DNA of 64,000 nt from Deinococcales bacterium (GCA_025359505.1 JANYHH010000028.1:32-64031), one strand, 5' to 3'. Numbered from the stretch's first letter, positions 18 to 43,407 are shown. Notes: generated by a model not told the origin, from the sequence alone. Translations and numbers: made by a program.

Positions 18-889
18 ATGTCAAGTACACGCCAGCTTCTCACCCAGCATACTCTCACCGACCTGTTCACCATCGTCTACGTCCTCACCGACGATTACTT
101 AAAGCAATCCAAATCCGCACAGCGTGTCACGCTTCCTATCTCGAGTCAGCAGAAAGGCAGTTACGCTTCTTGATCCCAAGCATGCACCTGACGGGCGGGA
201 TCGCGGAGTTGATGACCATCGCCCTCGTCGGTGAGCTGTTGCACCAATCCGAATCTGGCACTTGGTTTGCACTCGTTAAGAACGAGTTCAGCTCACTGTT
301 TCCGGTGCTGCCAGACATCACTCGGTTTTACCGAGTCCTAAAGAACCTCGAGCGGGTTTGGGCTGATTTTGCGTTGTGTCTTGCCAACAACGCTGATGAA
401 GATACAACGTACAGTACGGACTCTAAACCTTTACCGATCTGTAAGTTGAAACGCGCTCGTTTCCCAAGAGCCATGACCGAAGCCGCGAAGGGATTCAGTA
501 CAATGGGCGGTGTTCACGGCTTCAAATTGCATGCGGTAGTCAACAACGCGCAAGCCATTTGTCGCTTTGCCATCGTTCCAGCGAACGAAGCAGATGTCAC
601 AGTGGCACGGTGCTTAGTAAATGAGAACGAGGATGATCTGAGTCTGATCCTCGGGGATAAGGCGTACCTCGGCATGGGGATTTTCACGCCTTCTAAGCGC
701 AATGCGCGAACACCGCAACCATGGACGAAGTTGATGGACTCAGCGAGAAAGTTGATCGAAACGGTGTTCTCGAGTCTCACCAGAGCCAAGCATTTGGTGT
801 TGGGTCAATTGAATTCGTTCTGGTCGGTACGGGCAAGTGCGTGCAGGAAGATCGCGGCGCACAATCTTGGGTTGTGGCTGGGGCTATAA
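18..889 (+). pseudogene. IS982-family DDE transposase disrupted by a 38-bp insertion
   Basis: The ATG18 frame reads MSSTRQ...LFTIVYVLTDDYLK...QKGSYA and then stops. The 170..889 frame continues ELMTIALVGE...DSKPLPIC...GFKLH...LGDKAY...RKLIETVFS, which are IS982-type DDE motifs. Deleting 167-204 joins the two frames. Confidence 0.85.
167..204 (-). mobile_element. Mini-element copy A (38 bp)
   Basis: Minus strand reads GCGATCCCGCCCGTCAGGTGCATGCTTGGGATCAAGAA; similar to copies at 24776 and 43368; interrupts the transposase. Confidence 0.8.
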
Positions 890-948
890 CCCCCTAGCAC
901 TCGACGTAAACTGTGAAACTCGAGGTGCTACGAACTCGCACGAGGCGG

Positions 949-1983
949 TTACGGCTGGTGCTCGGGGGCATCCTCGCCGCTCTCGAGCACAGAGCGCAGG
1001 GCTGCTGGTGGAAGAAGCCGCGTCACGCGACGATTTTTATCGCGGTACATCACCGCATCGGCATCGCGCAGGCAGGCATCCAAATCCCGTCCATCCACAT
1101 CAGCCCAACCGGATGAAACGTTGGAGAATCCCTCCCGTACCGCTTCGCGCAAGTCCAGCATCTCACGGTTGGGGCCGTGCAGTCCGACGAACTCGTCGCC
1201 GCCGACGCGGTACAACGGGTCTGAAGTGGCGGCAGTGTAGACCTGCACGAATTGCAGCAGGTACTGATCACCCGCGTGATGCCCGTACTCGTCGTTGACG
1301 CGCTTCAAACCGTTGACATCCCACATGCTCAGGCAGCCAGAACCGCGCAAGTTCTGGAAATCCGCCTCGAGCGCGTAGCGGTTGCCCAGTCGGGTCAACG
1401 CATCGCGCATCGCCATAGATTTGAGTTCACTTTGTGCACGCTGCATGTTCATCAGCAGGTGATGGATGTACGCGCCGCACAGCATCGTCGTCAGCAGCAG
1501 CAGTAACCCAATCAGGGCATCTTCACTGAAGGTGTTTTCGCTCATGATAAGGATTGGCCAACTGCTGAGGGCGCAGACAATCGCGCCGCGCCAACCCCAG
1601 AGGAAACTGAGAAACAGCGCTGGTAAGCTCAAAATGGTCAGGCGGGCGAAAGCTGAGCTGAACAACCCACCGCTGTCCGTGACCAGCAGCGGAATGCAAA
1701 ACATAATGCCCAGCAGCGTCAAGCTGACGCCAAACATCGGACGTTGCCGGAAAATCAAAGCGCAGGCGGCCGTCCACAACAAAACGCTGCCAACGCGCCA
1801 CAACCCCGGATTTCCCCACGGGCTGACGAATGGCGATACCAAGTAGATCACCAAAAACGCAAACTCGGCGCTGAGCATCAGTCCCCACATTGAGCGCAGC
1901 AAGGTATCGCTGATCCGCTCCGTCATCAGTTCAGACGCAGCTTTGAGCGAATCCCTCGTATTGAACATACCGACACCGCGCAT
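949..1983 (-). CDS. Membrane-bound diguanylate cyclase (GGDEF)
   Basis: N-terminal hydrophobic helices; DALTRLGNR, DVNGLKRVNDEYGHHAGD and RVGGDEF motifs; GGAG upstream of ATG1983 (the ORF track starts at TTG2010). Confidence 0.9.
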   Translation of the reverse strand: MRGVGMFNTRDSLKAASELMTERISDTLLRSMWGLMLSAEFAFLVIYLVSPFVSPWGNPGLWRVGSVLLWTAACALIFRQRPMFGVSLTLLGIMFCIPLLVTDSGGLFSSAFARLTILSLPALFLSFLWGWRGAIVCALSSWPILIMSENTFSEDALIGLLLLLTTMLCGAYIHHLLMNMQRAQSELKSMAMRDALTRLGNRYALEADFQNLRGSGCLSMWDVNGLKRVNDEYGHHAGDQYLLQFVQVYTAATSDPLYRVGGDEFVGLHGPNREMLDLREAVREGFSNVSSGWADVDGRDLDACLRDADAVMYRDKNRRVTRLLPPAALRSVLESGEDAPEHQP

Positions 1984-2156
1984 GGAATCTCCCAGCGCTA
2001 TTGTAACCAATTCCCCTAATCGTCAGCAGGTCAAGTGACGCAAACGTTCGATTCGGCAGGCTAAAGTTTTGAGCCGATCAAAAGGTGCAAGACGAGAAAT
2101 CGTTTCAAATGACTTGGCAGAAAGCAAGTAGCAGCTCGAGGGACGTTATGTATGGT

Positions 2157-3128
2157 TCAGTAGTTGCGCTGCACGACCTGCATGCCGCCGGCCTCGAGCC
2201 AGTCGGTCAGTCCTGCCACGGCCGCTTTGACGCCGGGCGTGACGAGTGGGCTGCCGAACGACTCGAGACCCGCAATCGAGCGGCCTTCGCCTCGCCGTGA
2301 GACGCTGACCAGCGTTTCCTGCACGAAATCTGGCTCTTCGATGCGGGCCAGCACCACAAGCTTGTCTGGTCTGGTGTAACCCTCGAGCAGGATCACGGTG
2401 TACTCTGCGCCGCGCAGCACGGTTTTTTGGATGGGCTGAGTGGGAATATCTCCGGTGAGGATCGCGTGCGGCATGGGATCTCCTGAACTGCTGACTTTGA
2501 GCGGCTCGAAATCGGCTTGGCTCGAGGCGATTTTTTTGAAGCGGGCGTGGTTGATGCTGATGCCCATCGCTTGCCATTTCTGTGCGTACTTGGTTTGCAG
2601 TGCGGCGGCGGGCGGGGCAGTCTCGAGGATGTCAAAGAGCTTGGTGCTGCGAGCGTTCTCTAAAGCGAACTGGTAATACTCTGGGTGATCGGTGGTCAGC
2701 CACAGCTCGCCGCCAAGCTTCAAGCGCTGTGACAGCAGTTCAAATGTTTCAGTCCGCACGAAGCGGTTCTCCTCATGCTTGCCCTTGGGCCACGGGTCGG
2801 GGAAGTTGACGTACACGCGCTCCAAGCTGTCTGGCGGCAGGATATTGCGAATCAGGAATTCAGCGGCAACCCGAGTAACAATGCCACTTTGCACATGTGC
2901 AGCGCGGTACTTAGCCAAGGCCTTCTGCACGCTGACCCCGGAGATTTCCACGCCGAGGTAATTGACTGCTCCCTCCAACTGATGCTGCAACGCCCAGAAG
3001 TGACCGCCGCCGAAACCGACTTCCAAATGCAGCGGATTGGCGTTTTCAAACAAGCGCTGGCTCGAGTCGGGGTAGTGAAAATCGCTGTGTCTGAGGTAAC
3101 GCATGACTGGTGTTGGATGATGACCCAT
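2157..3128 (-). CDS. trmB: tRNA (guanine-N7)-methyltransferase with C-terminal extension
   Basis: LEVGFGGG, YLGVEIS, VNFPDPWPKGKHEENRF and LTTDHPEY motifs; the start could be ATG3104. Confidence 0.92.
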   Translation of the reverse strand: MGHHPTPVMRYLRHSDFHYPDSSQRLFENANPLHLEVGFGGGHFWALQHQLEGAVNYLGVEISGVSVQKALAKYRAAHVQSGIVTRVAAEFLIRNILPPDSLERVYVNFPDPWPKGKHEENRFVRTETFELLSQRLKLGGELWLTTDHPEYYQFALENARSTKLFDILETAPPAAALQTKYAQKWQAMGISINHARFKKIASSQADFEPLKVSSSGDPMPHAILTGDIPTQPIQKTVLRGAEYTVILLEGYTRPDKLVVLARIEEPDFVQETLVSVSRRGEGRSIAGLESFGSPLVTPGVKAAVAGLTDWLEAGGMQVVQRNY

Positions 3129-3187
3129 GCGGGGCCTTGAGTCAAGCGCTGGTGAGGTGTTACACTTCCCAGCGCTGTGAACGGTTG

Positions 3188-3262
3188 GGCCCCATCATCT
3201 AGCGGTTAGGATAACGCCCTTTCAAGGCGTGTACACGAGTTCAAGTCTCGTTGGGGTCACCA
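3188..3262 (+). tRNA. tRNA-Glu(TTC)
   Basis: Acceptor stem GGCCCCA/TGGGGTC, anticodon arm ACGCC-CTTTCAA-GGCGT, T-loop TTCAAGT, encoded CCA end. Confidence 0.97.
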
Positions 3263-3293
3263 AAAAACCCGCTCTTCACTGAAGCGGGTTTTT
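3263..3293 (+). terminator. Intrinsic terminator after the tRNA (possibly bidirectional)
   Basis: AAAAACCCGCT...AGCGGGTTTTT hairpin with A and T tracts. Confidence 0.8.
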
Positions 3294-3437
3294 CTTTAGC
3301 TCGAGCAGCGTTCAATCAATAATCCGCAATGTTTGCGAGTGCTGTGCTTACCGAGCACATCTGCTCGAGAATCAAGCAATCTCTCGAGGAACCGCGCTCT
3401 TACCTTTGCCTTTTGCCGACTTCTACGAGAAGTTTCG

Positions 3438-3764
3438 TCAGCGCATCATGTCCTCGAGAATCGTTGGGTGCTTGGCGACGTTCATCATCATGTCCAGACT
3501 CGAGATCGCCGCTGGCGGACACACGGCCACGAAGCGGTAGCGGCGCTGACCGCCGCTGCTGATGACCGAGCTGAGCAGCTTGACCTCCAAGGCGACGCTG
3601 CTTTCTATTGTTAAGTTCGGCAGTCCACGCGGGATTTGCACGTTGTCCGCGAGTTCAAAATGACCCGTGACCTCGCCGTTCTGCGCGTTCAGTTGGCGCA
3701 GCACGCAGGCGACCGTCTGAAAAACCACGCTATCGGAGCGCACGACCGCATCTTCGAGCTTCAC
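3438..3764 (-). CDS. Hypothetical protein (108 aa)
   Basis: ORF fills an intergenic gap; CATACT -10-like box 7 nt before the GTG start; no family recognised. Confidence 0.55.
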   Translation of the reverse strand: MKLEDAVVRSDSVVFQTVACVLRQLNAQNGEVTGHFELADNVQIPRGLPNLTIESSVALEVKLLSSVISSGGQRRYRFVAVCPPAAISSLDMMMNVAKHPTILEDMMR

Positions 3765-3865
3765 GAGTCCCAGTATGACACGGGCTGGAGGTGAGAGCAG
3801 TGGAAATCACGCTCCAAGCTGGGGCATACGATGCTTAAAGGTTGTGCCAGTTGGCGGACTGTCGA

Positions 3866-3894
3866 GGTGGGCGAACACACCGTTCGCACCCACC
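3866..3894. repeat. Imperfect REP-like hairpin downstream of smc
   Basis: GGTGGGCGAAC...GTTCGCACCCACC. Confidence 0.4.
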
Positions 3895-3965
3895 GAAAAT
3901 CTTGTCCTGCTCAGGGATCGCTCGAGTTGTGAAGCGACTCCAACACGGCTCGAGCGGGGAAATTT

Positions 3966-6900
3966 TCAGGCTTTTGCTAGCTCGGACGGCTCGTTTTTGA
4001 TGCTGAACGTGCGGCTCGTGCCGCTGGCATCGGTCGTTACGCCCCACAGCGCGTCGGCGATTTCCATCGTGGCTTTTTGATGCGTGACCAGAATGAACTG
4101 CGTGCCTTGATTGGCCAGCAAGCGCAAGAAATGCGTGAAGCGCCGGATGTTGGCTTCGTCCAGTGGCGCGTCCACCTCGTCCAGCACCGCCAAAGGTAAA
4201 CCCGCATCGTCGGCTGGGGCGCTTGCCAAGGCGAACAGGTACGCCAGCGCCGCCATCGTGCGCTCGCCCGCGCTGAGCAGGTGCAGGTTGCGGGTGCGCT
4301 TGCCCTTCGGCGTGACGCGCATTGCCAGCCCCTCGAGCGCCCCATCAGGGTCGCGCACCAGTTCAAGCTCGCCGTCGCCGCCGAGCAGTGAGGCAATGTA
4401 GGTTCTGAAGCTCGCGCCGACTCGAGCGATGCTCTCACCGAGCTTGGCGGTGACTTCGCGCTCCAACGTCTCCAGCGCCTCGCTCAGCTCAGTGACCGCT
4501 GCCCGAGCGTCGCTGACACCGTTTTCCAAATCCGTCAACGCTTGGGTTTCCAGCTCGTATTCTTCGGCCGCCAGCATGTTGACCGCGCCGATTTCGTCGC
4601 GGCGGGCTTTGATCTGCGTGACGCGCTGCGACCAGCCTCTGGGCGTGCCTTCTGGATCAGTGATCTCGAGCAAACTAGACAATGCCTGATCCCGTGCGTC
4701 TGGCTCGAGGTTCGGTAATAATTCAGTCAGCAGCGTTTCAAAATTCCCCTCGCGGCGGCTTTTGGCGTCCCGCGCCCGCTCCAAGGCTTCGCGCCCAGCG
4801 CTCAGCTCACGGCCTTGCGCGGCGACCACGCCCTCGAGACTGCGGCGCTCGGTTTCTAAACGCTCGAGTTCAGCGCGGGCCCCGCCGAGGTCGAGCGTCC
4901 GAGCGGCCGTTTCTAAGCGCTCGATCTCTGGGTTGGCGTGCAGCAGCTTCGCGCTCCACTCGGCTTCCAGACCAGCAATCGCCTCGAGCCGCGCATCAAT
5001 CGCGCCCCGGCGAACCGCGACTTGCTCGAGCCGCGCCACGGCTTGCGCGTAAGTGCGTTGCTGCTCCGCGTAGACCCGCGTTCGCGCCGTCGCGTCGCGC
5101 ACGGCTTCATCGCTCGAGCGTTCGGCATCTCGAGCGATAGTCACGGTCTGGCTGGTGCTGGCGAGCGCCCGTTCCAGCGGCTCGAGGTCGATCTGCTCTA
5201 CTCCGCCCAATGCGAGGCTGACGGCTTGCTGTGCGGCGAGGCGGGCGCTGAGGCTGGTCTGGCGCTGCTCCAAGCCTTCGATCCGCGTGTCGATCTGCAA
5301 CAGCGTCGCTCGGGTCGCTTCCAAGGTTTTACGCAGACCCACGACGCGCCCGTCGGTGCGCGTGACCGCTTCGCGTGAACTGGCGCTCTGCTCTTTTTCA
5401 TCGTTCAGCAGCTCCTCCGACTGAGCGAGGCTGGTTTCTAAGTCACTCAGTTCGCTTCTGGCTTCCTCGAGCCGCCGCGCATCGGCGAAGCTTTCCCCGG
5501 CATTGTCGCGCCCGCGCCCGCCGGTGACTGCGCCGCCGCTCTCCAAGAGTTCGCCGTCCAGTGTCACCAAACGCGGTCGGTCGCGGTACTGGCGGGTCAA
5601 AGCGAGCGCAGTCTCCAAATCGGCGACCAGCAAGGTCTCGCCGAATAAATTCTCCAGCACTGGCCCCAGTGCAGCGCCTTCGATGCCGATCAGACCAGCC
5701 GCGTACCCAAGCACGCCGCGCTCGGTAGCGATCGGCAGATTGCGCCGAGGGCGCACGCGCAGAATATCCAGCGGCAGAAACGTCGCCCGCCCGCCACCGC
5801 GTTTCAGTGATTCGATCACGCTGCGGGCGACCGCACCGCTTTGCACGACGATGTTTTCGGTGCGCCGCCCAAGGGCTGCGCCGATCGCAGTTTCAAATTG
5901 CTTGGGGACGCGCAGCAACTCCGAAACCGGCCCGATGATCCCAGCCACGCCGCTGTTCATCGCACGGCGCGGGCCGTCGGACAGGTAGGCTCTGGATTCG
6001 CGCAGCGTTTCCAAGCGCATCAATTCCTTAGCCAGCGGCGCTCGAGCACCGCGCAGCTCGTTGACCCGTCCGCCAACTTGTGCAATCCGCGCACTGATGC
6101 CAAGCGCTTCGCGCTCCAAGCGCTCGAGCAGCTTCGTGGCCGCCTCGAGTTCGCTCTTTGCTTCCTCGAGTTGCGGGCTAGACTCCGAGCGTTCTGCCCG
6201 AGCAACTTGCAGCTCACTGGCAATCTCCTCGAGCTGGTGCTGAGAAGCCTCGCGCTCGGTCGATTGGCGCGTCTGCGCCTCGAGCTGAGCGCGGTTGCTT
6301 TGCTCCAAGCGGTCGCGCTTGGCGCGAGCGTCAGCCAAATCCTTGCGGGCTTGCAGATCGGCTTGCTCGGCTGACCTGAGCGCTGTTTTCGCCCCCAGCA
6401 ACGCGGCCTCGAGCGCGGGCAGGTCATCGGCTGGCGCAATCGGTGGCTGCGGTGGCTCGAGGGTGGTCAGCGCCAAATTTTCAGTTTCCAAGCTCGTGCG
6501 CTCGTGGCGCAACGCGACGACGCTTTGATCGCCAGCACTCAAACGCTCGCGCAGCACGTTGGCCTCGCCGAGCAGACGCTCCGACTCGGCGCTCAGCCCA
6601 GCGAACGCCGCTTGCTGCCCTTCCCTGTTGACCCGCAACACTTCAAGCGCGGCGGTGGCCGCACTGATCGCGTCCGATGCAGCAGCAGCAGCGACCTCAG
6701 CCTCAGCGATCTCCAGCTCGAGCTTCGCCATCTCCGCTTGCAGCACGCGCACGCGCTGGCGCGAAAGGGCGGTCTCTAATTGTTGCTGCTCGAGCGTCAG
6801 ATTCGTCGATTCGCTGGCTGCCAGCGCCTCGGCTTCCAATTTGACGACGCGCAGGCGTTTGAGCACCGCCAAGTCCTCCGCCCGCTCCAAGTGAACCCGC

Positions 6901-7454
6901 GCCCCCTCGAGCCGTTCCACCGATTGAGCGCGGCGGTGCGTGGCCCGTGACAGTCCAGCCGCCTCTTCCAGATACCCGAGCATCGTCGTCGGATTGGCGC
7001 TGACCACCGCGCCGATCTCGCCCTGCCCGACCACGGCGATGCCGCCGGGCCCCAAGCCGCTGCCGCGCAGGACATCGTGCAGATCGCGCACGCGCACGGT
7101 TTTGCCGCCGATTTCCAGATCCGTGTCGCCATCTCTGTACAGCCGTCTGGCGATGCTGACCGCACCATGTGGCCCGGCCACGCCCGGCACGCCGACCAGC
7201 TCGAGTTGCACCTCGGCCATGTTCAGTGGCGCTTTGCCCGACGAGCCGTGAAAAATCAGCTCCGTGCTTTCACGCACGCGCAACTCGCGGGTGCGTGCCG
7301 TGTGCGACGCCCAGCGAATCGCCTCGATCACATTGCTTTTGCCAGAGCCATTGGGCCCGATCACCGCGTTGACTTGCCCGCTGAACTCCAAGCGCACGCG
7401 CTCACCGAAGGATTTGAAACCCTGAATGGTGACGCTTTGAATCCGAACGCTCAC
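3966..7454 (-). CDS. smc: Chromosome segregation protein SMC
   Basis: IQGFKSF, Walker A GPNGSGKSN, long coiled coils, hinge GRATFLPLD, signature LSAGE, LDEVDAPLD, ILVTH; probable start GTG7454. Confidence 0.95.
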   Translation of the reverse strand: MSVRIQSVTIQGFKSFGERVRLEFSGQVNAVIGPNGSGKSNVIEAIRWASHTARTRELRVRESTELIFHGSSGKAPLNMAEVQLELVGVPGVAGPHGAVSIARRLYRDGDTDLEIGGKTVRVRDLHDVLRGSGLGPGGIAVVGQGEIGAVVSANPTTMLGYLEEAAGLSRATHRRAQSVERLEGARVHLERAEDLAVLKRLRVVKLEAEALAASESTNLTLEQQQLETALSRQRVRVLQAEMAKLELEIAEAEVAAAAASDAISAATAALEVLRVNREGQQAAFAGLSAESERLLGEANVLRERLSAGDQSVVALRHERTSLETENLALTTLEPPQPPIAPADDLPALEAALLGAKTALRSAEQADLQARKDLADARAKRDRLEQSNRAQLEAQTRQSTEREASQHQLEEIASELQVARAERSESSPQLEEAKSELEAATKLLERLEREALGISARIAQVGGRVNELRGARAPLAKELMRLETLRESRAYLSDGPRRAMNSGVAGIIGPVSELLRVPKQFETAIGAALGRRTENIVVQSGAVARSVIESLKRGGGRATFLPLDILRVRPRRNLPIATERGVLGYAAGLIGIEGAALGPVLENLFGETLLVADLETALALTRQYRDRPRLVTLDGELLESGGAVTGGRGRDNAGESFADARRLEEARSELSDLETSLAQSEELLNDEKEQSASSREAVTRTDGRVVGLRKTLEATRATLLQIDTRIEGLEQRQTSLSARLAAQQAVSLALGGVEQIDLEPLERALASTSQTVTIARDAERSSDEAVRDATARTRVYAEQQRTYAQAVARLEQVAVRRGAIDARLEAIAGLEAEWSAKLLHANPEIERLETAARTLDLGGARAELERLETERRSLEGVVAAQGRELSAGREALERARDAKSRREGNFETLLTELLPNLEPDARDQALSSLLEITDPEGTPRGWSQRVTQIKARRDEIGAVNMLAAEEYELETQALTDLENGVSDARAAVTELSEALETLEREVTAKLGESIARVGASFRTYIASLLGGDGELELVRDPDGALEGLAMRVTPKGKRTRNLHLLSAGERTMAALAYLFALASAPADDAGLPLAVLDEVDAPLDEANIRRFTHFLRLLANQGTQFILVTHQKATMEIADALWGVTTDASGTSRTFSIKNEPSELAKA

Positions 7455-7494
7455 CGCCCCACCCGACGCATGGGGGCGAGTGTAACAAATTCGG

Positions 7495-7944
7495 TCACTC
7501 GGGCATCTCGAGGGTCGATTGCCGAGCATCTAGCATCTCGAGGTTTCGTTTCTCGAGCGTCTGCGTCTGAAGCTTCGGCTGCTCGAGTCCCTGCCGCTCA
7601 CGGTAGATCTGCATCGCGGCTTCCGACTCCTCGAGCGGGAACCTCAGCTCATTCGCCGCCATCTTCTCCAGCACCACCTTCTCGAGGTCAACGCCGTACT
7701 GCGAAGCGAGTTTGAGCAATAGCAACGTCACGTCCGCCAGCTCACCACCCAAGCGCTCTCGAGCGGCCGGATCAGGTGATTTATAGCCCTCGAGATGCAG
7801 CGCCTCGCGCATGACTTCGCCCAGTTCCTCCATCAAGTGCAGCGCGGTGTGGGCGGGCGATACCGCATCCCAACCGCGAGCCGCATCGAAATCCTCGAGC
7901 CGCCGTTGCAAGACCGCTAAGCTCGAGGCTACTGCTTCGGGCAC
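7495..7944 (-). CDS. MazG-like nucleotide pyrophosphohydrolase
   Basis: LMEELGEV...GELADV motif. Confidence 0.85.
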   Translation of the reverse strand: MPEAVASSLAVLQRRLEDFDAARGWDAVSPAHTALHLMEELGEVMREALHLEGYKSPDPAARERLGGELADVTLLLLKLASQYGVDLEKVVLEKMAANELRFPLEESEAAMQIYRERQGLEQPKLQTQTLEKRNLEMLDARQSTLEMPE

Positions 7945-24158: not shown

Positions 24159-24755
24159 GTGAATTTCTTCATCGGTGGCTCGCCGTGCAGTGGCAAAAGC
24201 ACAATCTGCGACGCACTGGCTGAGCGTCACGGGCTACGCGCTCATCACTGCGATGACCATTACGACGCGCATCTCAGCCGCGCCCTCAGCGGCTCGAGCC
24301 TAGCGCAGTTTCAGCGGCTTTCGTGGCTGGAGGCCTCCACGACGCATTCGCTCGAGCGGATGATCGCCGATGAACTCAGCGCCAATGTCGAGTTAGCCGC
24401 ATTCGCGCTCGAGGATGTGGACGCCATCGGTTCGCCCGTGATCGCCGAGGGTATGCCGTTCCTGCCGGATGTGATGGCGACATTGCAACCTCGAGCAGGC
24501 GCGGTTTATCTCGTGCCGAGTCCAGCCTTTCAGCGCTGGCTTTACGCCGAGCGCGAATGGGCGCAAGGTTTGCTGGCGACCACAGCAGACTCAATCGGCG
24601 TTTTCGAGCGTTGGATGGCTCGAGATGCGAGCAATGCCCGCTTCATTCACGCTCGAGCGACGGCACTTGGGTTCGCAGTACTCGAGGTCGATGGACGGTT
24701 AAGTCTTGAGGAGACCGTGACTTGGTGCGAACGTCATTTGGGGCTGACGCGTTAG
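24159..24755 (+). CDS. P-loop nucleotide kinase-like protein
   Basis: N-terminal IGGSPCSGKST Walker A. Confidence 0.75.
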   Translation: MNFFIGGSPCSGKSTICDALAERHGLRAHHCDDHYDAHLSRALSGSSLAQFQRLSWLEASTTHSLERMIADELSANVELAAFALEDVDAIGSPVIAEGMPFLPDVMATLQPRAGAVYLVPSPAFQRWLYAEREWAQGLLATTADSIGVFERWMARDASNARFIHARATALGFAVLEVDGRLSLEETVTWCERHLGLTR

Positions 24756-24764: not shown

Positions 24765-24830
24765 GTAGGGGCGCAGCGACCCAGCCCGAAGGTGCATGAT
24801 TTGCGCCTCAAGACACATGTTGCGCCCCTC
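24765..24830. repeat. GTAG-type REP palindrome split by mini-element copy B
   Basis: GTAGGGGCGCA | 39 bp | ACATGTTGCGCCCCTC. Confidence 0.8.
24776..24814 (+). mobile_element. Mini-element copy B (39 bp)
   Basis: GCGACCCAGCCCGAAGGTGCATGATTTGCGCCTCAAGAC; removal restores a perfect 24-bp palindrome. Confidence 0.8.
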
Positions 24831-29517: not shown

Positions 29518-29572
29518 TCATTTCCTCGGCTCTTCTAGACTCGGACTGCTTGAGCGTTACTGATTTCTGGCA

Positions 29573-33635: not shown

Positions 33636-33659
33636 GCAGCTCGAGGGTAAAATCTGCAC

Positions 33660-34151: not shown

Positions 34152-34161
34152 CCGTCTCGAG

Positions 34162-34971: not shown

Positions 34972-35882
34972 GCGTACCTCACTCGAGGGTCGACCAGCCC
35001 GTACAGCGCGTCGGTCAGCAAGTTCAAGCCCAGCACCGTGCCGCTCGAGATCAAGGTGTACGCCAGAATCAACGGGTAATCCAATCGCGTCAGCCCCTCG
35101 AGCGCGAGGCGGTTGATGCCGGGCAGCGCGAACAGCGTCTCAGAAATGACCGTACCAGACAGCAAGCTGCCCAGTTGCAAGCCCAGAATGGTGATGAATG
35201 GCAGCAATGCGTTCCTGAGCGCGTGACCGTACAAAATCGCACCCGAGGGCAAACCTTTGGCGCGGGCGGTGCGGATGAAATCCTCGGGCAGCACCTCGAG
35301 CAGACCAGCGCGGATGTAGCGCGTGAACAGCGCGACTCTGGGAATGCTCAAAGTCAACGCGGGCAAGATGAAATGCGTCCAGTCGCTCGCACCCTGCGAC
35401 GGCAGCACGCGCCACTGCACCGCGAAGACGAAAATCAACACGATGCCGATGAAGAACGTCGGGGCGCTGACCGCGACGGCGCTGCCAGTCAGAATCGCAC
35501 GCTCGAGCCTAGCGCCGTGGCGGGCGGCGGCGATCACGCCAAGCGGCACGCCGATCAGCAAGGAGAGCGTCAGCGACACGGCAACCAGCAACAGTGTTAT
35601 CGGTAGGCGCTCGAGCAGCAGCGGCAAGGCAGGGCGGTCGAAGACGAAACTCTTGCCAAGGTTTCCCTCGAGTACGCCGATCAAGTAACGCCCGTAGCGC
35701 TCGAGCGGCGCGGCGTCGAGTCCCAAGCTCTGCTCGAGCGCCAGCCGTTCCTGTGATGTGGCGCTGTCAGACACCAGCAGCGAGATTGGATCGCCCGCGA
35801 GGTTGATGCCGACGAAGGTTAGCGTCAGAATCAACCACAGCGTCAGCAGCGTTTGACCGACTCGAGTGAGGAGGTACGTCAA
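34968..35882 (-). CDS. Peptide/nickel ABC permease (DppB-like)
   Basis: GNLGKSF, FIRTARAKGL, HALRNA, ETLFALPG. Confidence 0.92.
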   Translation of the reverse strand: MTYLLTRVGQTLLTLWLILTLTFVGINLAGDPISLLVSDSATSQERLALEQSLGLDAAPLERYGRYLIGVLEGNLGKSFVFDRPALPLLLERLPITLLLVAVSLTLSLLIGVPLGVIAAARHGARLERAILTGSAVAVSAPTFFIGIVLIFVFAVQWRVLPSQGASDWTHFILPALTLSIPRVALFTRYIRAGLLEVLPEDFIRTARAKGLPSGAILYGHALRNALLPFITILGLQLGSLLSGTVISETLFALPGINRLALEGLTRLDYPLILAYTLISSGTVLGLNLLTDALYGLVDPRVRYA

Positions 35883-36775
35883 AACTCGATGCCCTTGAGC
35901 GCGAGCCGCCGCAGATCATGCGACCAGCCCCACGATGCGTCCTCCAGCGACCACGACAAGCTCAGCAGCGCGTGCAGTTGGACGAAAGTTTGCAGCCGCT
36001 CGAGGTTCAGTGTTTGATGGCGCTCGTAGCCGCGTCTGAAACCCTCGAGATGGGTGGAGAGGTTGGGAAACGGGCCAGCCTCGTCTCGAGACATCGCCCG
36101 CGCCACGTCGTACTCGGGCCACGCGAGTACAGGTTCATCAAAGTCAATCATCCAAACTTTCACACTGTCCCAGACGGCATTGGCGGGTCTGAAATCGCCG
36201 TGACAAGTCAGCATCTCGGACATCGGCAAGCCCTCGAGCCACGGTGTCAAACGCTGGTAGACCTCGAGCAGCTCGGCATCGTTTCGCACGGTCTGCTCAA
36301 TCTTGCGCCAGAAGGTTCGCAAGCTAAAGCGCTCTGGCAGCATCGCGCCGCTCGAGGTCATCACGGCTCGAGGTTCGTAACCTGCGCTGGCTTTGTGCAG
36401 CCGACCTGCCGCCGCGCCCCACAGCTCAAGTTGAGTGTCGGTGATCGCGTCCCCGAGTGATTGCCCGTTGATCCCAGTCCAAACGGTCGCCAGCCAATCG
36501 CCATCGCGCTCGATCAAACAACCAGCATTCGACTCGAGCGCCCCCGACACATTCGCGCCGTTCGCCGCTAGCCACCGCGCCCAGTCCACGCCCGCCGCGA
36601 CAAGTTCCATGTCCCGCAAATTCGAGCGAACCAAGCGCAAGTAATGCCCGCTGCTCAAGCGGTAGACGAGATTCGCACTGACACCCACGCGCTCGAGAAC
36701 CGTGTCATCCCACAGACTCGCCGCTCGAGCCGCCGTGTCCTGCGGTAAATCCGCGAGGGTCTGCGCCCAAGTCAA
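35879..36775 (-). CDS. APH/homoserine kinase type II-like phosphotransferase
   Basis: CHGDFRPAN and IDFD motifs. Confidence 0.85.
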   Translation of the reverse strand: MTWAQTLADLPQDTAARAASLWDDTVLERVGVSANLVYRLSSGHYLRLVRSNLRDMELVAAGVDWARWLAANGANVSGALESNAGCLIERDGDWLATVWTGINGQSLGDAITDTQLELWGAAAGRLHKASAGYEPRAVMTSSGAMLPERFSLRTFWRKIEQTVRNDAELLEVYQRLTPWLEGLPMSEMLTCHGDFRPANAVWDSVKVWMIDFDEPVLAWPEYDVARAMSRDEAGPFPNLSTHLEGFRRGYERHQTLNLERLQTFVQLHALLSLSWSLEDASWGWSHDLRRLALKGIEF

Positions 36776-37182
36776 TGCTTCACCAACCGCCAGCGCCCTC
36801 CGCCCAAGTCAGCGGCTGACCCTCGAGCCTCGAGTTGCTTTAAAACCTCGAGCGCCGCTGACTGATCGAGCAATGTGGCATTGGTGATTTGCTCCACGGT
36901 CAACTCATTACCGTTGCGATACGCGAGGCGCAAAATCGCCCGCTCTCCCCTGTCCGAACGTGGGCTGTCCGTTTGCCGCGTTTCGATGCGCCTGAACAGC
37001 AAAAACGCGCCGAATCCCGCAGCGACCGCCACCAGCACCTCGAGCCACCACAGGCGGAAGCCGAAAGTCGTCATGCCCAGCAGTCTCGAGCCGATGATGC
37101 TCAGCACGCCTAGGCAGGCGTAACCAAAGCCGATGCCGAGCGCGATGGAGACCGCAATGGCTGGAATTCTCTGCATCATCAC
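36772..37182 (-). CDS. Membrane protein with a C-terminal winged-helix-like domain
   Basis: Two hydrophobic helices, then AILRLA...LTVEQI...VLKQLEARG; coupled to both neighbours. Confidence 0.65.
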
Positions 37183-38543
37183 CCCATTGACGCGCTCGAG
37201 GTTACGGGTGAGAACGGCTGCATCGGCGCGAAACTCACTTGCCGCACGGTTTGCGTGACCTCACCGAACAGCATGTGCGGCGTGGCGTGCGTGATTTTGG
37301 CTTTGTAAATCCCCGCGATCGGCGCTTGACCCGCTGGCAGTAAAACCGTGTGATGCCCGCTCGAGTGCCCCTCCATGAACGACGGTTCATAAGCGGGCCC
37401 GCGCATCAGCACCTCGAATTCCTTGCCGACCAGCGCCGTGTTTTTCAGTTGCGACCAGTGTTTCTGACGCTCGATCAGGCGCTGCAAGCGTTCGACCTTG
37501 ACCTCTTTGGGCAGGTCGTCAAAGTGTGCGTAGCTGGGCGTGCCGGGGCGGGCGCTGTAGAGGTACATGTAGGCTTGGTCGTAGCCAACCGCGTCGTACA
37601 GCTCCAAGGTCTGCTGAAAGTCACTTTCGGTCTCGCCCGCAAAGCCGACGATCAGATCGGTCGTGATGAAAACCTCGGGCATCACGCTTCGCATCCGTTC
37701 AATCCGCTCGAGATACCACTGAGCCGTGTACTCGCGCCCCATGCGTTTCAGCACGCGGTCACTGCCGCTCTGCACGGGCAGGTGAATGTACTTGCAGACA
37801 TTGGCGGTCTGCGCGATCACGTCGATGATCTCGTCGGTGAAATCCATCGGGTGCGAAGTCGTGAACTTGACTCGAGGAATGCCGCTGCGCCCCACGCGAC
37901 GCAGCAACTCGGCGAAGCTCGGAAAACCAGCGCGGTCAAGTCCGTAAGAGTTGACGTTCTGCCCCAGCAAATTCACCTCGAGCGATCCCGCCGCGACGAT
38001 TCCCTCGAGTTCTTTGAGGATGTCGTCAGGATCGCGGCTGACCTGCGGGCCACGCGTTTGCGGCACGATGCAATACGTGCAGTGATGATCGCAACCGCGC
38101 TGAATCGTCAGCATCGCACTCAACCTGCCCTGCGGTGGCGGCGCGATGAAGCTGTTGATGTCGTCCTTGAACGCCAGATTCCAGAATTTGCCGTTGCCCT
38201 CGAGCGCCCGCCCAATGTCCAGCAAGGCTCCGGGCCCAAGCAGCACGTCGACCTCGTACTTCTTGGCGATCTGCTGCCCTTCTTCTAACTGCGCCAAACA
38301 GCCCATCATCCCGAGCATCAAGCCCTTCGAGTGCTTGAGTTTACGCAGATCCCCAAAAACGGATTTGACCTTATCGACCGGCTTGCCGCGCACCGCGCAG
38401 GTGTTGACCAGCACGAAATCAGCCTCGTCGACGCTTCGCACCATCTCAGCACCCAGCGCCACGAGCTGCGACTCCACCAGATGCGAGTCGTACTCGTTCA
38501 TCTGGCAGCCGTGAGTAATCATGTGAACACGCGTAAAAACCAC
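37179..38543 (-). CDS. miaB: tRNA-2-methylthio-N6-dimethylallyladenosine synthase
   Basis: [23 protein letters not shown] radical SAM motif, [12 protein letters not shown] domain; probable start GTG38543. Confidence 0.95.
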
Positions 38544-38630
38544 CTGCCTCGAAGGGTATTTTACGCCCTCGAGCTGGGCGTGACATCCCGAGGCTCGAGG
38601 GGGGATGAGGCTGCGTGCTAAACTGCTCAT

Positions 38631-38819
38631 ATGACGGCAATTCGCAAACCCACAAGCGAAAAAACGGGCGCACCAACATCGGCAAAGAAACCCGCTCGTA
38701 AAGCGGTGCGTAAAAACGTTAAAAGCGAGTCTCCGACATCATGGGCTGATGCTCGCAAAATGATGGGAGATTTGATTAAACAAAACTCCAAAGCGCTGAA
38801 AAAACTAGCGAGGCTGTGA
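38631..38819 (+). CDS. Small putative antitoxin (62 aa)
   Basis: Leaderless TAAACT-6nt-ATG; directly upstream of the doc-like gene; C-terminal amphipathic helix. Confidence 0.6.
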
Positions 38820-39266
38820 GTGAACGACCCGACTTCCAACCGCGCTGATTTCCGGCATCGCGGGATGAAGTTTCCGACGGTGCGAGCTGTGAACGAGTTG
38901 CACGATGGCATTCTGCTCTAAAGCAGCGGCTTGGCAGGCGTGAAGAACGCGGGATTGCTCGAGAGCGCCGTGCGTAAAGTTGTCGTCACCGCAGGAGGTG
39001 AGGACGCTTACGCGGGGCTGTACTGTAAAGCCGCCGCCGTTGGATTCAGCATCATTCAGAATCAGGTGTTTAACGACGCCAATAAACGCACTGGCCTGTT
39101 GACCATGCTCTACATCTTGCGTTTGAACGGCGTGCGCGTCAAACCATCCGAGGACGCCTCGAGTACATTGGCGATTCTGATTGCGACGGGGCATCTGAAC
39201 ATTGATGGCATCAGAGCGGCATTGCTGCACTGGGCGGGCGAAAACCCGAGCAGCACGACACTTTAA
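38820..39266 (+). pseudogene. Doc/Fic-family toxin with an in-frame stop
   Basis: ELHDGILL*SSGLAGVKNAGLLESA with TAA at 38919-38921; Fic motif reads QVFNDANKR (His replaced by Gln). Confidence 0.8.
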
Positions 39267-39304
39267 GGTTCAAGCGCTGTAATCCTCGAGCGTTGGCTCA
39301 CACA

Positions 39305-40261
39305 TCACGCCGCTTTTTTCTTCGGTTTCTTCACGCCCGCGATCTCTAATGTATACGCGCACGGCGCGGGTTTGTGCGTGACGATCAGCTCGTGCAATAA
39401 GTCAACGGGCACGACCGTGCCTTCGGGCGGGTTGATGCGAACTTTGAAGGTGAACGGTTGCTTATCGTCGGTCGTGATCTGCGGCGTCAAACCCGTACAC
39501 AACTCAATTGCTCGAGACAACCCATATTCAGTGCCGCGCCAACGCACCAAATCCATCGCCTCGAGCAAAACCCGTCTACGCCGCGCTTCGGGCCAGTGTG
39601 CGGGCGCGGGGAAGCCCAGCCACTGACTGATCGGCGCGAGCATCTGCACGGGCGCAGTGCGCGGGTCAAAATACATGGCGATGTGATCCTGCCGCCACTC
39701 GAGCGGCTCCCAGATCGTTTCAAAGATCATTAAAAAACGGTGCAAGAAGTCCGTGCCGTGGAAAATCGCGGGCAGGTCGCGCATGTACAGCGCACCGGGC
39801 CCCTTGGCTTTCGGGGCTGGGTACAGCGCAATCGCGGGCGGGAGCGGCGCGGCCGCGGGCGGCGGCGTGTAAGGTTCTTCTGGCAGTTCCGCCTCGAGTT
39901 CAGCTTTGGGGAGCGGCTGAAGCTCCTTGACGTTTGGTGTGCCCTCGCCCGGCTCGTAACTGAGCACGTAAGGCCCAATCTGGATCGGTAATCCGGGCAG
40001 CAGCGGATACGGGCGGTCTGGCTCGAGCTTGTTGCCCGCGACGAACGTGCCTTTTTCGCTGGATAAATCAACGATCACCGGGCCAGTGGGCGTCATGCTG
40101 ATCTCGGCGTGTTTGCGGCTGACGCCGGGTAAGCCGAGCGGCAGGTTGTTCTCAGCGCTTCTCCCAATGGTCAGCACGTCCTCTAAGGCTGTGGTGAACA
40201 CGACTTGACCCTGAAATTGCACGATGATCTGCGCGGGCTTCGCCACGTTTAGCGCCTCCAA
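39305..40261 (-). CDS. FHA domain fused to a phage-tail/baseplate wedge (P2 gpI-like) protein
   Basis: FHA motifs IGRS...VSRKHA...DLSSEKGTFV; Pro-rich linker; LPAIF...FLHRFL...FDPRTAP...WRGT...HKPA. Confidence 0.85.
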   Translation of the reverse strand: MEALNVAKPAQIIVQFQGQVVFTTALEDVLTIGRSAENNLPLGLPGVSRKHAEISMTPTGPVIVDLSSEKGTFVAGNKLEPDRPYPLLPGLPIQIGPYVLSYEPGEGTPNVKELQPLPKAELEAELPEEPYTPPPAAAPLPPAIALYPAPKAKGPGALYMRDLPAIFHGTDFLHRFLMIFETIWEPLEWRQDHIAMYFDPRTAPVQMLAPISQWLGFPAPAHWPEARRRRVLLEAMDLVRWRGTEYGLSRAIELCTGLTPQITTDDKQPFTFKVRINPPEGTVVPVDLLHELIVTHKPAPCAYTLEIAGVKKPKKKAA

Positions 40262-40322
40262 TCAGATAGCTCGAGGTCACATTTTTGATGCTGACATTGC
40301 CTCGAGCCTCGAGTCCGTCTCA

Positions 40323-42335
40323 TCAGCCCGCCTCGCCGCGAATCACGGCGCGGACGCGGTGCGTTTCGCTGGCTAAAAGTGCGCCCGGCGCGACCTCAAG
40401 GTGGCTGGGGACGGGACGCGGCGGTTGGTTGCTGCCGGGATCGCTGACGCCCACGCGCACCTCTTCGACGTACTCGACGCCTTCGATCCGTTGCAGAATC
40501 GCCACAAGTTCGGGTTGGTGCAGGTCGCGCCCGAACGGGTAGCCCAGTCCGCGTGGGCCACCGTTGTAGGGATTGAGGAATTTGTACAGCGCAGCCTCGG
40601 CTTTGGCTTCTATGGCGACCAATACTTCAGGGTCAGTGCCGACGGGCACGCGCAGCTTGGCTTCGACCGACACGAAGATTAATTGCGGGCCGCGCACCTC
40701 TAAAGACGTGCCGACCAAGATGCGGCTTTTTAAGAGTTCAAAAACCTCAGCCCTCGTCTCGGCGCTGAGCGTCATCGCCTCGAGCGGCACGCGACCTGAT
40801 GTTTTATCGGTGCTGGGCAGCACGATCAGCGCTACAGCGCCGGGCTTCGGGGCATTTGGGACGGGCAGACCAGCGTTGCCCGGTGCGAAGCAGTACGCCC
40901 GTGCCACACCGGGGACTCGAGTCGCCATCGTCTCGTAATCATCAGCGGCGACGGCTCTCGTGCGGGTGCGGAGGTGTTGCGGCGCTCTGAGTTTCGCGTC
41001 GTCCAAATTTTGCGCGTCGCGCCCACCAATCGCTTCGGAGCGATTGATGACCCTCGCCACGAACGGGATGCTGCTTTTCAAAACGCTCAATGCGCCGCGT
41101 GGCACATTGCCGATTACGCCGCCACCGAACTGGTAGCGGGAGAACCGCAGATGAGCGCCTTTCGCGGGAATCGCGCCGAAGGTGTACACGTTGCCGTCCG
41201 GTTGCGGCAGCGTCGGCGCAAGCGTGATCGTCCCCTCAAGCGCGTCCAGTGTGTAGTGCTTGTCGTCGCGCCCGGAATCGGCGAAGTCACTGACCTCGCG
41301 CCACGGCTCACTCGCGCCGCCCGCTTCGACGGTCAGGAAATCGCGCTCTGGATCGCGGGACAACAGCGGCGCGTTCAGCAACTTGAAGCGCTGCCCCGGC
41401 GTGGCTTCGCTCAGGCCCAGCAGCTCGTTCTGCACGGTGATCGCGTGTCGCGCCCCGACCGTGCCACCGCGAGACTCGATCGTGAGTTTCTCCAACTCTG
41501 GCGACACGCGGTAGCCCATCTGGGCTTGCGCCTCGGTTAAACGCACGCGCAGCCAGTACGCCTCGAGATTCTGAAAAGCACGGCTTTGCATCTGCGGCAG
41601 GTGCAGGATCACCTCGCCGCTCTGGTTGAAACCGCCCGTACCGTCGTACTCCAAGTCGCAACCGACCCACTGGGTGGTCACGCCCTGCCAGACCTCCCAG
41701 CGCAGCGGCGGATTGGTCGGGTCGACGCCCGCGCCGCCCGCGACTTCGCAGGTTAAGAGCAGCGCCAAGACGTGAAAACTGTGGTCTTTTTCCAAAGCAA
41801 GGTAGAAGGCATCCCCGGATTGCGGCGGCGTGGTGAACAAAGTCAAGCGCTGGCCCGGCAGCTCCAAACGCTTTAAGTCGTGGCGCAGCCACGGCGCGTC
41901 ACGCGACTGGGCCGCGCCGCGTGTGAACGCGCCGAGCAGCGTCGGCGGGCGGATCGTCAGCAGCTTTTCCGTACTGAAGGTGATCGCTTGACTGGTTTCG
42001 GTACGCACCGTGGCGACCTCTGTGCCTTCAGCGATCAGCAGATCCGTACCTTGGGCTTTGGAGAGGTAAAACGTCATCGGCGCAATCGCCGCTCTGGGCG
42101 GCTCGAGGGTCACGCCCATCAATTCCAGAAACTTGGTGTACATTTTGTCCGGCACTTGATTGACGCGGTACAGCAGCAGATCGGTCATCCACGCGAACAG
42201 TTCGATCAATGCCACGCCCGGATCGGAGACGTTGTGATCCGTCCACTCAGGAGTGAATTGCGGGATCATGCGCTTAGCTTGATCGACGATATCTTGGAAT
42301 TTGCGGTCGTCCAAATTGATGTCTGGCAGTGCCAT
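40323..42335 (-). CDS. Baseplate J-like assembly protein
   Basis: LDDRKFQDIVD, PEWTDHNVSDPGVALIELFAW, RAVAADDYE, GYPFGR. Confidence 0.92.
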   Translation of the reverse strand: MALPDINLDDRKFQDIVDQAKRMIPQFTPEWTDHNVSDPGVALIELFAWMTDLLLYRVNQVPDKMYTKFLELMGVTLEPPRAAIAPMTFYLSKAQGTDLLIAEGTEVATVRTETSQAITFSTEKLLTIRPPTLLGAFTRGAAQSRDAPWLRHDLKRLELPGQRLTLFTTPPQSGDAFYLALEKDHSFHVLALLLTCEVAGGAGVDPTNPPLRWEVWQGVTTQWVGCDLEYDGTGGFNQSGEVILHLPQMQSRAFQNLEAYWLRVRLTEAQAQMGYRVSPELEKLTIESRGGTVGARHAITVQNELLGLSEATPGQRFKLLNAPLLSRDPERDFLTVEAGGASEPWREVSDFADSGRDDKHYTLDALEGTITLAPTLPQPDGNVYTFGAIPAKGAHLRFSRYQFGGGVIGNVPRGALSVLKSSIPFVARVINRSEAIGGRDAQNLDDAKLRAPQHLRTRTRAVAADDYETMATRVPGVARAYCFAPGNAGLPVPNAPKPGAVALIVLPSTDKTSGRVPLEAMTLSAETRAEVFELLKSRILVGTSLEVRGPQLIFVSVEAKLRVPVGTDPEVLVAIEAKAEAALYKFLNPYNGGPRGLGYPFGRDLHQPELVAILQRIEGVEYVEEVRVGVSDPGSNQPPRPVPSHLEVAPGALLASETHRVRAVIRGEAG

Positions 42336-42479
42336 GGTGTCTGTTCCTCGTTTCTGCGTGCGGACTCGAGCGGGAAAAAGTGCGTTCTCGAGCTTTGTTT
42401 TGAGCTTCTGGCTTCACCTCGAGCACTTTGCTCTCTGCGGTCTGCCCTCTGCGGTCTGCCCTCCGCCCTCTGCTTGCCT

Positions 42480-42875
42480 TCACTCCCCCGGAATGCGGTA
42501 GAACGGATAGACCAACGTGCGCTTATCTAACGTCGCTTTGACGCGGTAATCGACGTGGACATCCATGCGCTCGGTGTTGCCTTCGCTCGGACGGGCGGTG
42601 ACGTTCAGCACGGTAATGCGCGGCTCCCAGAAGCGCAGCGCTTCCTCGACGTAGTATTCAGCCATGCCCCACGTGTTGGCGTCGTTCGGCGCGAAGATCA
42701 ATTCGTGAATCTGGCAACCGAATTCTGGACGCATCACGCGCTGACCTTTTGGGGTCAGCAAAATCATCATAATAGCCTGCTCAATATCCGTGACCTGCCG
42801 CGCCAAGCCAATCCGCCCTCTGGCATCGACACCGATTGGGAACGCCCAGCCCACCCCGAGAAAATCGCTGCTCAT
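42480..42875 (-). CDS. GPW/gp25-family baseplate protein
   Basis: FLGVGWAFP, GQRVMRPEFGC, WEPRI, LVYPFY. Confidence 0.93.
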   Translation of the reverse strand: MSSDFLGVGWAFPIGVDARGRIGLARQVTDIEQAIMMILLTPKGQRVMRPEFGCQIHELIFAPNDANTWGMAEYYVEEALRFWEPRITVLNVTARPSEGNTERMDVHVDYRVKATLDKRTLVYPFYRIPGE

Positions 42876-42987
42876 AGGTAGCTCCCAGCCAACACTTTGA
42901 CTTTTTCGAGATCACAGTGACGACAGCTCGAGGCTGTTCTGCTCGAGGCTGTGTAGCGAGGCACATTGAATCTTGAGATCTGCATGT

Positions 42988-43281
42988 TCATCCCCCGATC
43001 AGTACGGTAAAACAGCCCAGCACAATCGACCCGCCGTGCGCGGTCATGTCCCCCATCCGAGCGGCCGGCTTGCCGCCGATCATTACGGTCGCGCTGCCCA
43101 TGACGATCGAGTCTGGCGGGCCAACACACGTCAACATATCCCCCAAGCACGCGGCGGGTAGCCCACCAATCAGCACCGTCGAGCAGCCCGGCGGCAGAAT
43201 CGGCCCGCCCACGTGCGGCACGATCCCCGTCACCATCGGGCAGACGTGCATGTCACCAACTCGAGCGGCTGGTTGACTCAC
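42988..43281 (-). CDS. PAAR-domain spike-tip protein
   Basis: PAARVGD, PAACLGD, PAARMGD; start GTG43281 or ATG43299. Confidence 0.92.
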   Translation of the reverse strand: MSQPAARVGDMHVCPMVTGIVPHVGGPILPPGCSTVLIGGLPAACLGDMLTCVGPPDSIVMGSATVMIGGKPAARMGDMTAHGGSIVLGCFTVLIGG

Positions 43282-43367
43282 TGGTCGAACCTCGGGCATT
43301 GGGTTGTTTTCATGGGTCTCCTCGAGTTGCTTCGCGCTTAGGGCGGTTTGCAAATACGTTGTCGCAC

Positions 43368-43407
43368 TTCTTGACCCTGAAAGCAGCACCTGACGGGCTT
43401 GGGTCGC
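43368..43407 (-). mobile_element. Mini-element copy C (40 bp)
   Basis: Minus strand reads GCGACCCAAGCCCGTCAGGTGCTGCTTTCAGGGTCAAGAA; lies between vgrG and the PAAR gene. Confidence 0.78.

Follow-up and report, generated by a model that had tools for sequence, protein, structure and literature searches.

A family of 36-41 nt single-hairpin mini-elements in Deinococcales and a possible route of movement as single-stranded DNA

Background

How does a sequence of some 40 nucleotides (nt), with no open reading frame (ORF) of its own, come to sit cleanly inserted in three different hosts within one stretch of DNA? The question is raised by a 64,000-nt window (the whole stretch analysed here) from a Deinococcales bacterium (GCA_025359505.1, JANYHH010000028.1:32-64031), which corresponds to C21:32-64031 of a genome, G000, of 4.23 Mb in 127 contigs that is 92% complete. 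The initial annotation of this window described three related sequences, A, B and C, as copies of a mobile mini-element. They belong to a family of structured 36-41 nt units that insert precisely at a defined junction, nest in one another, form arrays and are carried along by other repeated DNA. This family is very probably a mobile mini-element. Our preferred reading, to which we give a probability of about 0.45, is that A, B and C are members of a non-autonomous single-hairpin family moved as single-stranded DNA (ssDNA), in trans, by a Y1 HUH enzyme. Genomes, contigs and loci are designated G, C and L below; a contig given alone belongs to the genome of origin.

The unit and its family

The letters, coordinates and strands given earlier for the three copies proved exact on re-reading. 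The copies are as follows, P1 being the outer stem and the scores those of a covariance model (R1):

167..204, minus strand: copy A, a 38-nt unit with P1 arms GATCCC/GGGATC (59.8 bits, the top match in the genome)
24776..24814, plus strand: copy B, a unit of 39 nt whose core has a GAA triloop (20.1 bits)
43368..43407, minus strand: copy C, a 40-nt unit with P1 arms GACCC/GGGTC (37.5 bits)

The strict family pattern was AGCG-N5-6-GCCCGNNAGGTGC-N10-14-CAAGA and its control was the same pattern reversed. Both were run against 41 genomes: the genome of origin, 18 others of the same family (five genera) and 22 from four sister families. The strict pattern has 65 matches in the genome of origin, while the reversed control has none in any of the 41 genomes. 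The statement that the element is present three times is thus correct for the window, where the covariance model finds exactly three copies, but not for the genome. A profile built from A, B and C gave 51 matches at E<0.01 in the genome of origin, and the covariance model gave at least 71 at E<=0.01, a count resting on 150 scored of about 4500 first-pass candidates. Iterated nhmmer (50 matches) did not reach the more distant subfamilies. The 13-nt core by itself is no commoner in the window than expected by chance (three matches at up to one mismatch versus 2.74 expected, a number reached in 56 of 100 shuffles); the full-length unit pattern is far beyond chance.

Read on the top strand, a unit consists of 5'-GC, P1, the core, a T-rich linker of 3-6 nt, P1' and an AAGA tail at the 3' end. 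Its length (36-41 nt) and lack of an ORF agree with the earlier description of it as non-autonomous and as too short for a miniature inverted-repeat transposable element (MITE), and its ends, GCG and AAGAA, are indeed not inverted repeats. P1 has 4-7 bp and its first pair is always G-C. The core (GCCCG-NN-A-GGTGC) forms a second helix, P2, as GCCC-GNNA-GG(T)GC with a bulged T. All 127 distinct units in a separate alignment open with GCG; after AAGA the tail continues with A in 62 cases, with CA in 19 and otherwise with another short end.

That the unit is structured, as first proposed, is borne out by statistics on 169 distinct units from the genome of origin and from fetched loci. At P1 pairs 2-5 the paired fraction of cells is 84.0%, compared with 51.2% +/- 1.5 when the 3' halves are shuffled (maximum 55.6% in 1000 shuffles). 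This parse is the unbiased estimate; the 97.6% pairing in the subset of 68 gap-consistent rows used for covariation is inflated, since these rows were pre-selected for at least five of six pairs. In that subset both-side changes occur at five of the six P1 pairs, with a covariation score of 0.391 against 0.136 for shuffled and at most 0.094 for slid controls. The arms include GATCCT/AGGATC, GATTCC/GGAATC, GACCAT/ATGGTC, GACCAC/GTGGTC, GCCC/GGGC and GCCGC/GCGGC, and one subfamily (GCGAACA/TGTGAGC) carries tandem G.A/A.G pairs in its stem. The P2-extension pair, formed by the base 5' of GCCCG and the base 3' of GGTGC, is Watson-Crick in 72.2% of units versus 35.5% +/- 3.4 after shuffling (A-T 72, T-A 35, C-G 8 and G-C 7). 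A G-N-N-A loop is present in 164 of the 169 units; closed by this tetraloop, the core has a possible fold of GC, bulged T and CC. The minimum-energy fold of copy A is the family model. The structure is strand-specific, since the complementary strand has neither the G.A pairs nor the GNNA loops. Against Rfam, the window contained only a tRNA at gathering score, and the sole match around copy A was at chance level (E = 1.7).

Scans of the relatives, as of the genome itself, returned many further copies. The strict pattern is present in every one of the 18 other family genomes, with 1-217 matches each, and in none of the 22 genomes of the four sister families. A public scan with one genome per species gave at least 116 stretches, and 78 of the 80 matches listed come from Deinococcales or from metagenome-assembled genomes of Deinococcota. 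The stems of the two others, L068 and L092, pair poorly, and both appear to be chance matches. With the covariance model, 1-3 weak matches were found in 13 of 150 other genomes of the phylum; for a large sister genus, g7, the figure is five of 77 genomes. Two g7 genomes share the same well-formed unit with identical flanks (L156, G104:C67:2988-3022; L157, G161:C1:1102994-1103028), and G101 has a further convincing single copy outside the family. The units are therefore present, at very low copy number, beyond the high-copy lineage. As the initial annotation had supposed, the literature yielded no description of such elements in Deinococcota; the only related report is that of the 'mosaic-type' repeats of D. 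radiodurans, considered below.

Empty sites and the junction rule

All three copies in the window lie inside other mobile or repeated DNA: an insertion sequence (IS), a palindrome resembling the repetitive extragenic palindromes (REPs) and a MITE-like repeat:

1..908, plus strand: IS982-family IS, host of A (NF033520 transpos_IS982, PF13612)
18-173 and 170-889, within this IS: ORFs, the two halves of a transposase gene split by A
24765..24775, plus strand: 5' half of the REP-like host of B, with the GTAG tag and 5' arm
24815..24828, plus strand: 3' half of the REP-like host of B
43339..43507, minus strand: 169-bp MITE-like host of C, with ends TAGGGC...GCCCTA

The precise insertion and reconstructable empty sites claimed for the three copies were found in actual DNA for each of them. 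For A, IS982 homologues of two other genera (G009:C137, 70% identical, and G006:C825, 68%) lack exactly the 38 bp and read TTACGC^GGAGTTG where the window has TTACGCCGAACTT. The G006 copy has itself received a different 39-nt member of the family, at another site and in the opposite orientation, which introduces a stop codon. The downstream ORF of the split transposase gene (170-889; 138.8 bits with NF033520, whose cut-off is 130, and also matched by PF13612) starts within copy A (TTG at 170, ATG at 182) and spans positions 3-241 of the 243-position IS982 model. This restart inside A may be the reason why the IS keeps spreading in spite of the split.

For B, the uninterrupted palindrome is found on C62 (twice) and C30 with 100% identity over 26-28 nt across the junction. 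Together with its REP flanks, copy B folds at -16.3 kcal/mol (z = -2.15), and the same composite of REP and unit exists at eight further loci of the genome. For C, the empty site GTCGCAC^TTCGTGC is present on C60 and C120, in identical hosts, and in a diverged form on C15. The ends of this host were set by an alignment of 11 copies with 200-nt flanks, in which similarity starts and stops at these points. Without the unit it measures about 129 bp, and it recurs in at least 13 further places of the genome, many of them at contig ends. The majority of its copies contain the unit.

The spacer between PAAR-like and VgrG-like genes is the site of C and not of B, which lies between two convergent ordinary genes. 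The minus-strand ORFs at 40323-45247 around C read, from their translations alone, as a baseplate J-like protein, a PAAR-like protein and a VgrG/gpD-like hub, and look like parts of a contractile injection or phage-tail-like system. The orthologous spacer in G001 lacks the whole MITE and is too diverged to align; only one of the genes flanking B was found in that genome.

Each unit was then deleted in silico and its two flanks, joined, were used as a search sequence. Ungapped empty counterparts were obtained for 109 units, representing 94 non-redundant sites, none of which has a target duplication, in agreement with the first description. Thirty-three of the 94 lie inside another unit, directly after the A of its tetraloop (GCCCG-N-N-A^GGTGC), and 61 are non-nested, mostly in other small repeat families. 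The base 5' of the unit in the genome of origin is A in 73 of 77 cases, G in three and C in one (copy A itself), using a pattern that does not demand A. Relatives' loci from the one-genome-per-species scan were fetched with a pattern opening in A, so that their A at this position is partly built in. In the empty sites, the base at -1 is A in 92 of 94 and that at +1 is G in 72 and A in 17. The unit opens with G and closes with A, and the left joint, the right joint and the target are thus all A|G on the top strand, that is, C|T on the bottom strand.

Many targets are hairpin loops. A perfect stem of at least 5 bp brackets the joint within 6 nt in 13 of the 61 non-nested empty sites, compared with 5.9% of 3000 random intergenic A|G sites; with the nested sites included, hairpin loops make up about half (46) of the 94 sites, among them GCAC-GAA^GTGC (the host of C) and CTCTCCC-GCA^(A)GGGAGAG. 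Small hairpin repeats that host units include CTCTCCCGCA|AGGGAGAGG, CCCCCTGCGAAGTA|AGGGGG and GAGAGAA|GGGTTGGGGATGAG, each of which also occurs uninterrupted elsewhere; loci of such hosts are, for example, C1:48046, C80:29710, C68:7323 and C15:18803.

Nesting is accompanied by tandem arrangement. Nineteen arrays were found, of which 14 have two units, three have three and two have four; their 26 adjacent head-to-tail pairs all share one register to the nucleotide, AAGA-A-GCG, with no spacer. The unit boundaries are therefore constant. None of the three outcomes named in the initial annotation as refuting it (no further copies, intact IS982 homologues that contain the 38 bp, variable boundaries) was thus observed. 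Twelve of the pairs are of identical units, which is compatible with slippage. Eight join units with differing arms and these argue that a unit can insert at the 3' end of one already in place. In copies of one host repeat, on C8, C24, C5 and C10, the arrays have 2, 2, 3 and 4 units.

A candidate route of movement

A unit inserts in one orientation between A and, usually, G, without duplicating its target. Its preferred sites are the 3' edge of G..A hairpin loops, as provided by REP-like palindromes, MITEs and small repeats, together with the core loop and the 3' end of other units. According to the reading that we prefer, the moving form would be ssDNA, and a Y1 HUH enzyme acting in trans would cut and rejoin it. 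As such an enzyme, the most likely candidates would be three proteins encoded by the genome that resemble the REP-associated tyrosine transposases (RAYTs). The assignment to an HUH/Y1 enzyme is tentative, and we hold it at somewhat less than even odds.

Such an enzyme fits because all three joints are C|T on the bottom strand, the sole sequence requirement reported for TnpA-REP of Escherichia coli. TnpA-REP acts on ssDNA only, the dinucleotide C|T suffices at the cut, the intermediate is covalent and tandem copies can arise by strand transfer (PMC3333891). The choice of ssDNA over RNA is narrowed by a search for RVT_1, which gave no match in the genome of origin (92% complete) while control genomes responded.

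The three RAYT-like genes (C91:2840-3406, C19:7501-8157 and C78:26634-27347) are missed by Pfam and score 57.9-69.2 bits with NF047646, under its cut-off of 80 bits. The genome also has one IS200/IS605 TnpA gene, truncated by a contig end, and about 240 hairpins with a GTAGGGG tag as counted by a regular expression, with which other tags scored as high in the control. REP-like palindromes are also found within the RAYT-like reading frames themselves. Among other possible enzymes, the GIY-YIG model PF01541 has a single match in the genome, within an ORF of 612 amino acids whose size suggests UvrC, and no small single-domain GIY-YIG gene of the Ssn type was found there. The Y2_Tnp model gave no match in this genome, but its control was silent too. 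The initial annotation had named HUH/RAYT transposases and reverse transcriptases as partners whose co-occurrence should be examined. RAYT-like genes do accompany the units in 16 of the 18 family genomes; the reverse transcriptase part of the proposal found no support.

A number of observations weigh against this assignment. RAYT-like genes are also present in eight of 42 sister-family genomes, which by the strict pattern have no unit; G017 has 37 copies of the unit without a RAYT-like match, and G001 has three RAYT-like genes and only seven units. PF01797 was silent in G003 (84 copies) and G002 (135 copies), where a protein query did find RAYT-like genes. Nor do units keep company with the candidate genes. 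None lies within 900 nt of the three RAYT-like loci of the genome of origin. Of eight RAYT-like loci fetched by query (from this genome, six relatives and one sister-family genome), only L174 has units, and four further RAYT-like loci have none. At L174 (G007:C488), in another genus, a 36-nt unit lies inside the RAYT-like gene at locus position 1779 and a second lies downstream in the opposite orientation. A unit is present at one of 12 Y1_Tnp loci, and at L147 a unit lies about 1.4 kb from a Y1 or RAYT-like gene. E. coli TnpA-REP requires a REP in cis; here one lies within 400 nt of 5 of 59 loci against a control mean of 3.7, which is not significant. There is no strand bias with respect to GC skew (10 versus 15, p=0.42) or gene strand (11 versus 10). 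The right-hand joint departs from A|G in about 23% of cases, that of B being A|A, and the C|T specificity on which the analogy draws is known for the E. coli enzyme only. Finally, hairpin stability is ordinary (z = -0.49 for A), and the four core P2 pairs are invariant, so that P2 pairing is not proven by covariation.

Alternative explanations

The alternative that survives best retains the same mobile mini-element and assigns its movement to an enzyme of unrecognised type, neither Y1/HUH nor reverse transcriptase nor Ssn, that would be specific to the bacterial family and would read the core hairpin and tails. We consider this possible though rather doubtful. In five genera the GCCCGNNAGGTGC core and the tails are kept although the stems drift, and this suggests a dedicated reader. 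No Y1 gene was found to be linked to the units by position, and high copy number is limited to one bacterial family while RAYT-like genes are not. The tag is not GTAG and the units are head-to-tail, unlike REPs (PMC3733652). There is, however, no candidate gene for such an enzyme. Array neighbours have no gene in common and appear from their translations, on which no family search was made, to be ordinary housekeeping genes; moreover, the C|T joints suit a known enzyme class. Somewhat less likely again is the bolder version of this explanation, in which the unit would be the smallest known transposable element and represent a new class: a 31-nt two-helix hairpin with tails of 2-6 nt, using its own core loop and 3' end as targets and served by an unrecognised enzyme.

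It is improbable that there is no present transposition and that a few old insertions have been spread by their IS982, MITE and REP hosts, the arrays having arisen by slippage or unequal recombination. Passive amplification with the host is nevertheless real for units lying within an IS, MITE or REP. All 14 copies of the unit identical to C are in the same MITE and B is always in the same REP. The IS982 ends recur at other contig ends of the genome. In Logan contigs (four runs of one study), the IS982 interior including A is a single contig of depth 41.3, the unique flank has a depth of 10.4 and no contig skips the 38 bp of A, although contigs can drop rare variants. These rough depths suggest about four IS982 copies, all carrying A. 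The 12 identical pairs in arrays would also fit. Such hitch-hiking does not account for empty sites in 61 differing non-nested contexts and 33 nested ones, for two independent insertions at different sites in the IS982 homologues of two genera, for the eight of 26 adjacent pairs that join different subfamilies, or for copy numbers as far apart as 1 and 217 in genomes of a single family.

Less probable still is that the units are mainly functional sites, for binding a host protein or for RNA stability, which are kept by selection, mobility being secondary. An invariant core across five genera would be expected of such sites, as would the unit at the same locus in the two sister-family genomes G104 and G161, and units in the genome of origin are mostly intergenic. 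But units also land in and break transposase genes, their orientation relative to co-directional neighbours is inconsistent (opposite at 11 loci and the same at five, with crude gene calls), they have no terminator-like U tract, and precise nested and tandem insertion is left unexplained.

Spread by way of RNA, a copy being reverse-transcribed or reverse-spliced, is very unlikely: the structure is strand-specific and several of its motifs, namely the GNNA loop, the bulged U and the tandem G.A pairs, are typical of RNA, but these motifs are also stable in ssDNA, the RVT_1 search described above gave no match, Rfam gave none either and G.U is not in excess over A.C, with 14 T.G against 19 C.A at the P2-extension pair.

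Implications

The spread of very small repeats, such as the small dispersed repeats (SDRs) of cyanobacteria, REPs and NTS repeats, is largely unsolved, and the present family is unusually clear-cut: the unit is fixed, its structural grammar fits on one line, the junction rule is simple (A|G, that is, C|T), single genomes hold dozens of filled and empty site pairs, and copy number ranges from one to more than 200 across a single bacterial family. With such features, oligonucleotides and a few candidate proteins would allow the search for the enzyme to be put to a direct test. Units break assemblies, split genes (here the IS982 transposase gene) and build mosaic repeats with REPs and MITEs, and such mosaics may account for the 'mosaic' repeats that have been known for many years from Deinococcus. 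There could also be a use, as a tool, for a minimal hairpin directing precise ssDNA insertion.

Comparison with known systems

The units are not members of the REP, MITE, CRISPR (clustered regularly interspaced short palindromic repeat) or NTS/SRM families, whose defining features they lack. MITE identity was rejected: the units have neither terminal inverted repeats nor target duplication and measure 36-41 nt, compared with roughly 50-500 bp. A CRISPR origin was also discarded, as the arrays have no spacer and the two resident 37-nt CRISPR repeats are unrelated on inspection. The resident arrays are at C40:20321-20907, C85:878-1350 and C85:12868-13247, and of their repeats one ends in ATTGAAAC and one starts with GTTTCAATCC. 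Domain 5 of group II introns, integron attC sites and IS91 ends were also considered and were set aside because the tails of the unit are unpaired and there is no matching core site.

Derivatives of IS200/IS605 have two different end hairpins and are at least 100 bp long. With IS200/IS605 and the palindrome-associated transposable elements (PATEs) the units share the absence of target duplication, insertion on the 3' side of a short motif in a fixed orientation, and the recognition of hairpins; unlike PATEs they have one 31-nt hairpin instead of two, and their target is only A|R, with a one-base 5' rule (A). The donor of IS200/IS605 is ssDNA (PMC6006769). NTS/SRM repeats are oriented 20-50 nt hairpins, present in hundreds of copies and read as ssDNA by the small GIY-YIG nuclease Ssn (PMC11893778). 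They differ from the units in their CGTC-type motif, and the genome of origin has no small GIY-YIG gene.

Within the same phylum, D. radiodurans has mosaic-type small noncoding repeats (SNRs), of which PMC1978522 reports 295 copies of at least nine types with an 'unusual, mosaic structure'. We take these to be a different family on the basis of the weak covariance matches in g7. They may be an analogous phenomenon.

In behaviour, the nearest analogues are REP mosaics, or bacterial interspersed mosaic elements (BIMEs), and the cyanobacterial SDRs. Like REPs and BIMEs, the units are hairpins within the 20-40 nt range with a short conserved unpaired tag, stems that covary within subfamilies (the compensatory-stem palindrome of the REP/RAYT systems) and a high, lineage-specific copy number, and their C|T joints on the bottom strand are compatible with the cut site of the E. 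coli REP enzyme. They differ in their tag, which is AGC/AAGAA and not the GTAG or CGTC of REPs, and in having two helices with an invariant core; they sit in the loops of REPs instead of being REPs. REPs mostly form inverted pairs, head-to-head or tail-to-tail, and are rarely head-to-tail, while the units give 26 exact head-to-tail pairs, inverted pairs not having been systematically counted. The REPtron arrangement, a RAYT gene flanked by its repeats, was not found at the RAYT-like loci examined.

SDRs nest within one another. On the brief descriptions used for comparison they resemble the units in being very short, lacking an ORF, occurring both dispersed and in tandem and being thought mobile by a mechanism that is unsolved, and they differ in phylum, in sequence and in size (36-41 nt here). 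Both host lineages, moreover, have a hyper-abundant short palindrome, highly iterated palindrome 1 (HIP1) in cyanobacteria and CTCGAG here. CTCGAG occurs 27,140 times in the 4.23 Mb (6.4 per kb), against about 1,360 expected from base composition; it leads all other hexamers by a factor of two, and the next palindromic hexamer, AGCGCT, has 4,107 copies. It is found in the window at 141-146, 24653-24658 and 43322-43327, for example, and also inside both CRISPR repeats. CTCGAG looks like a HIP1-type highly iterated palindrome of the Deinococcales lineage.

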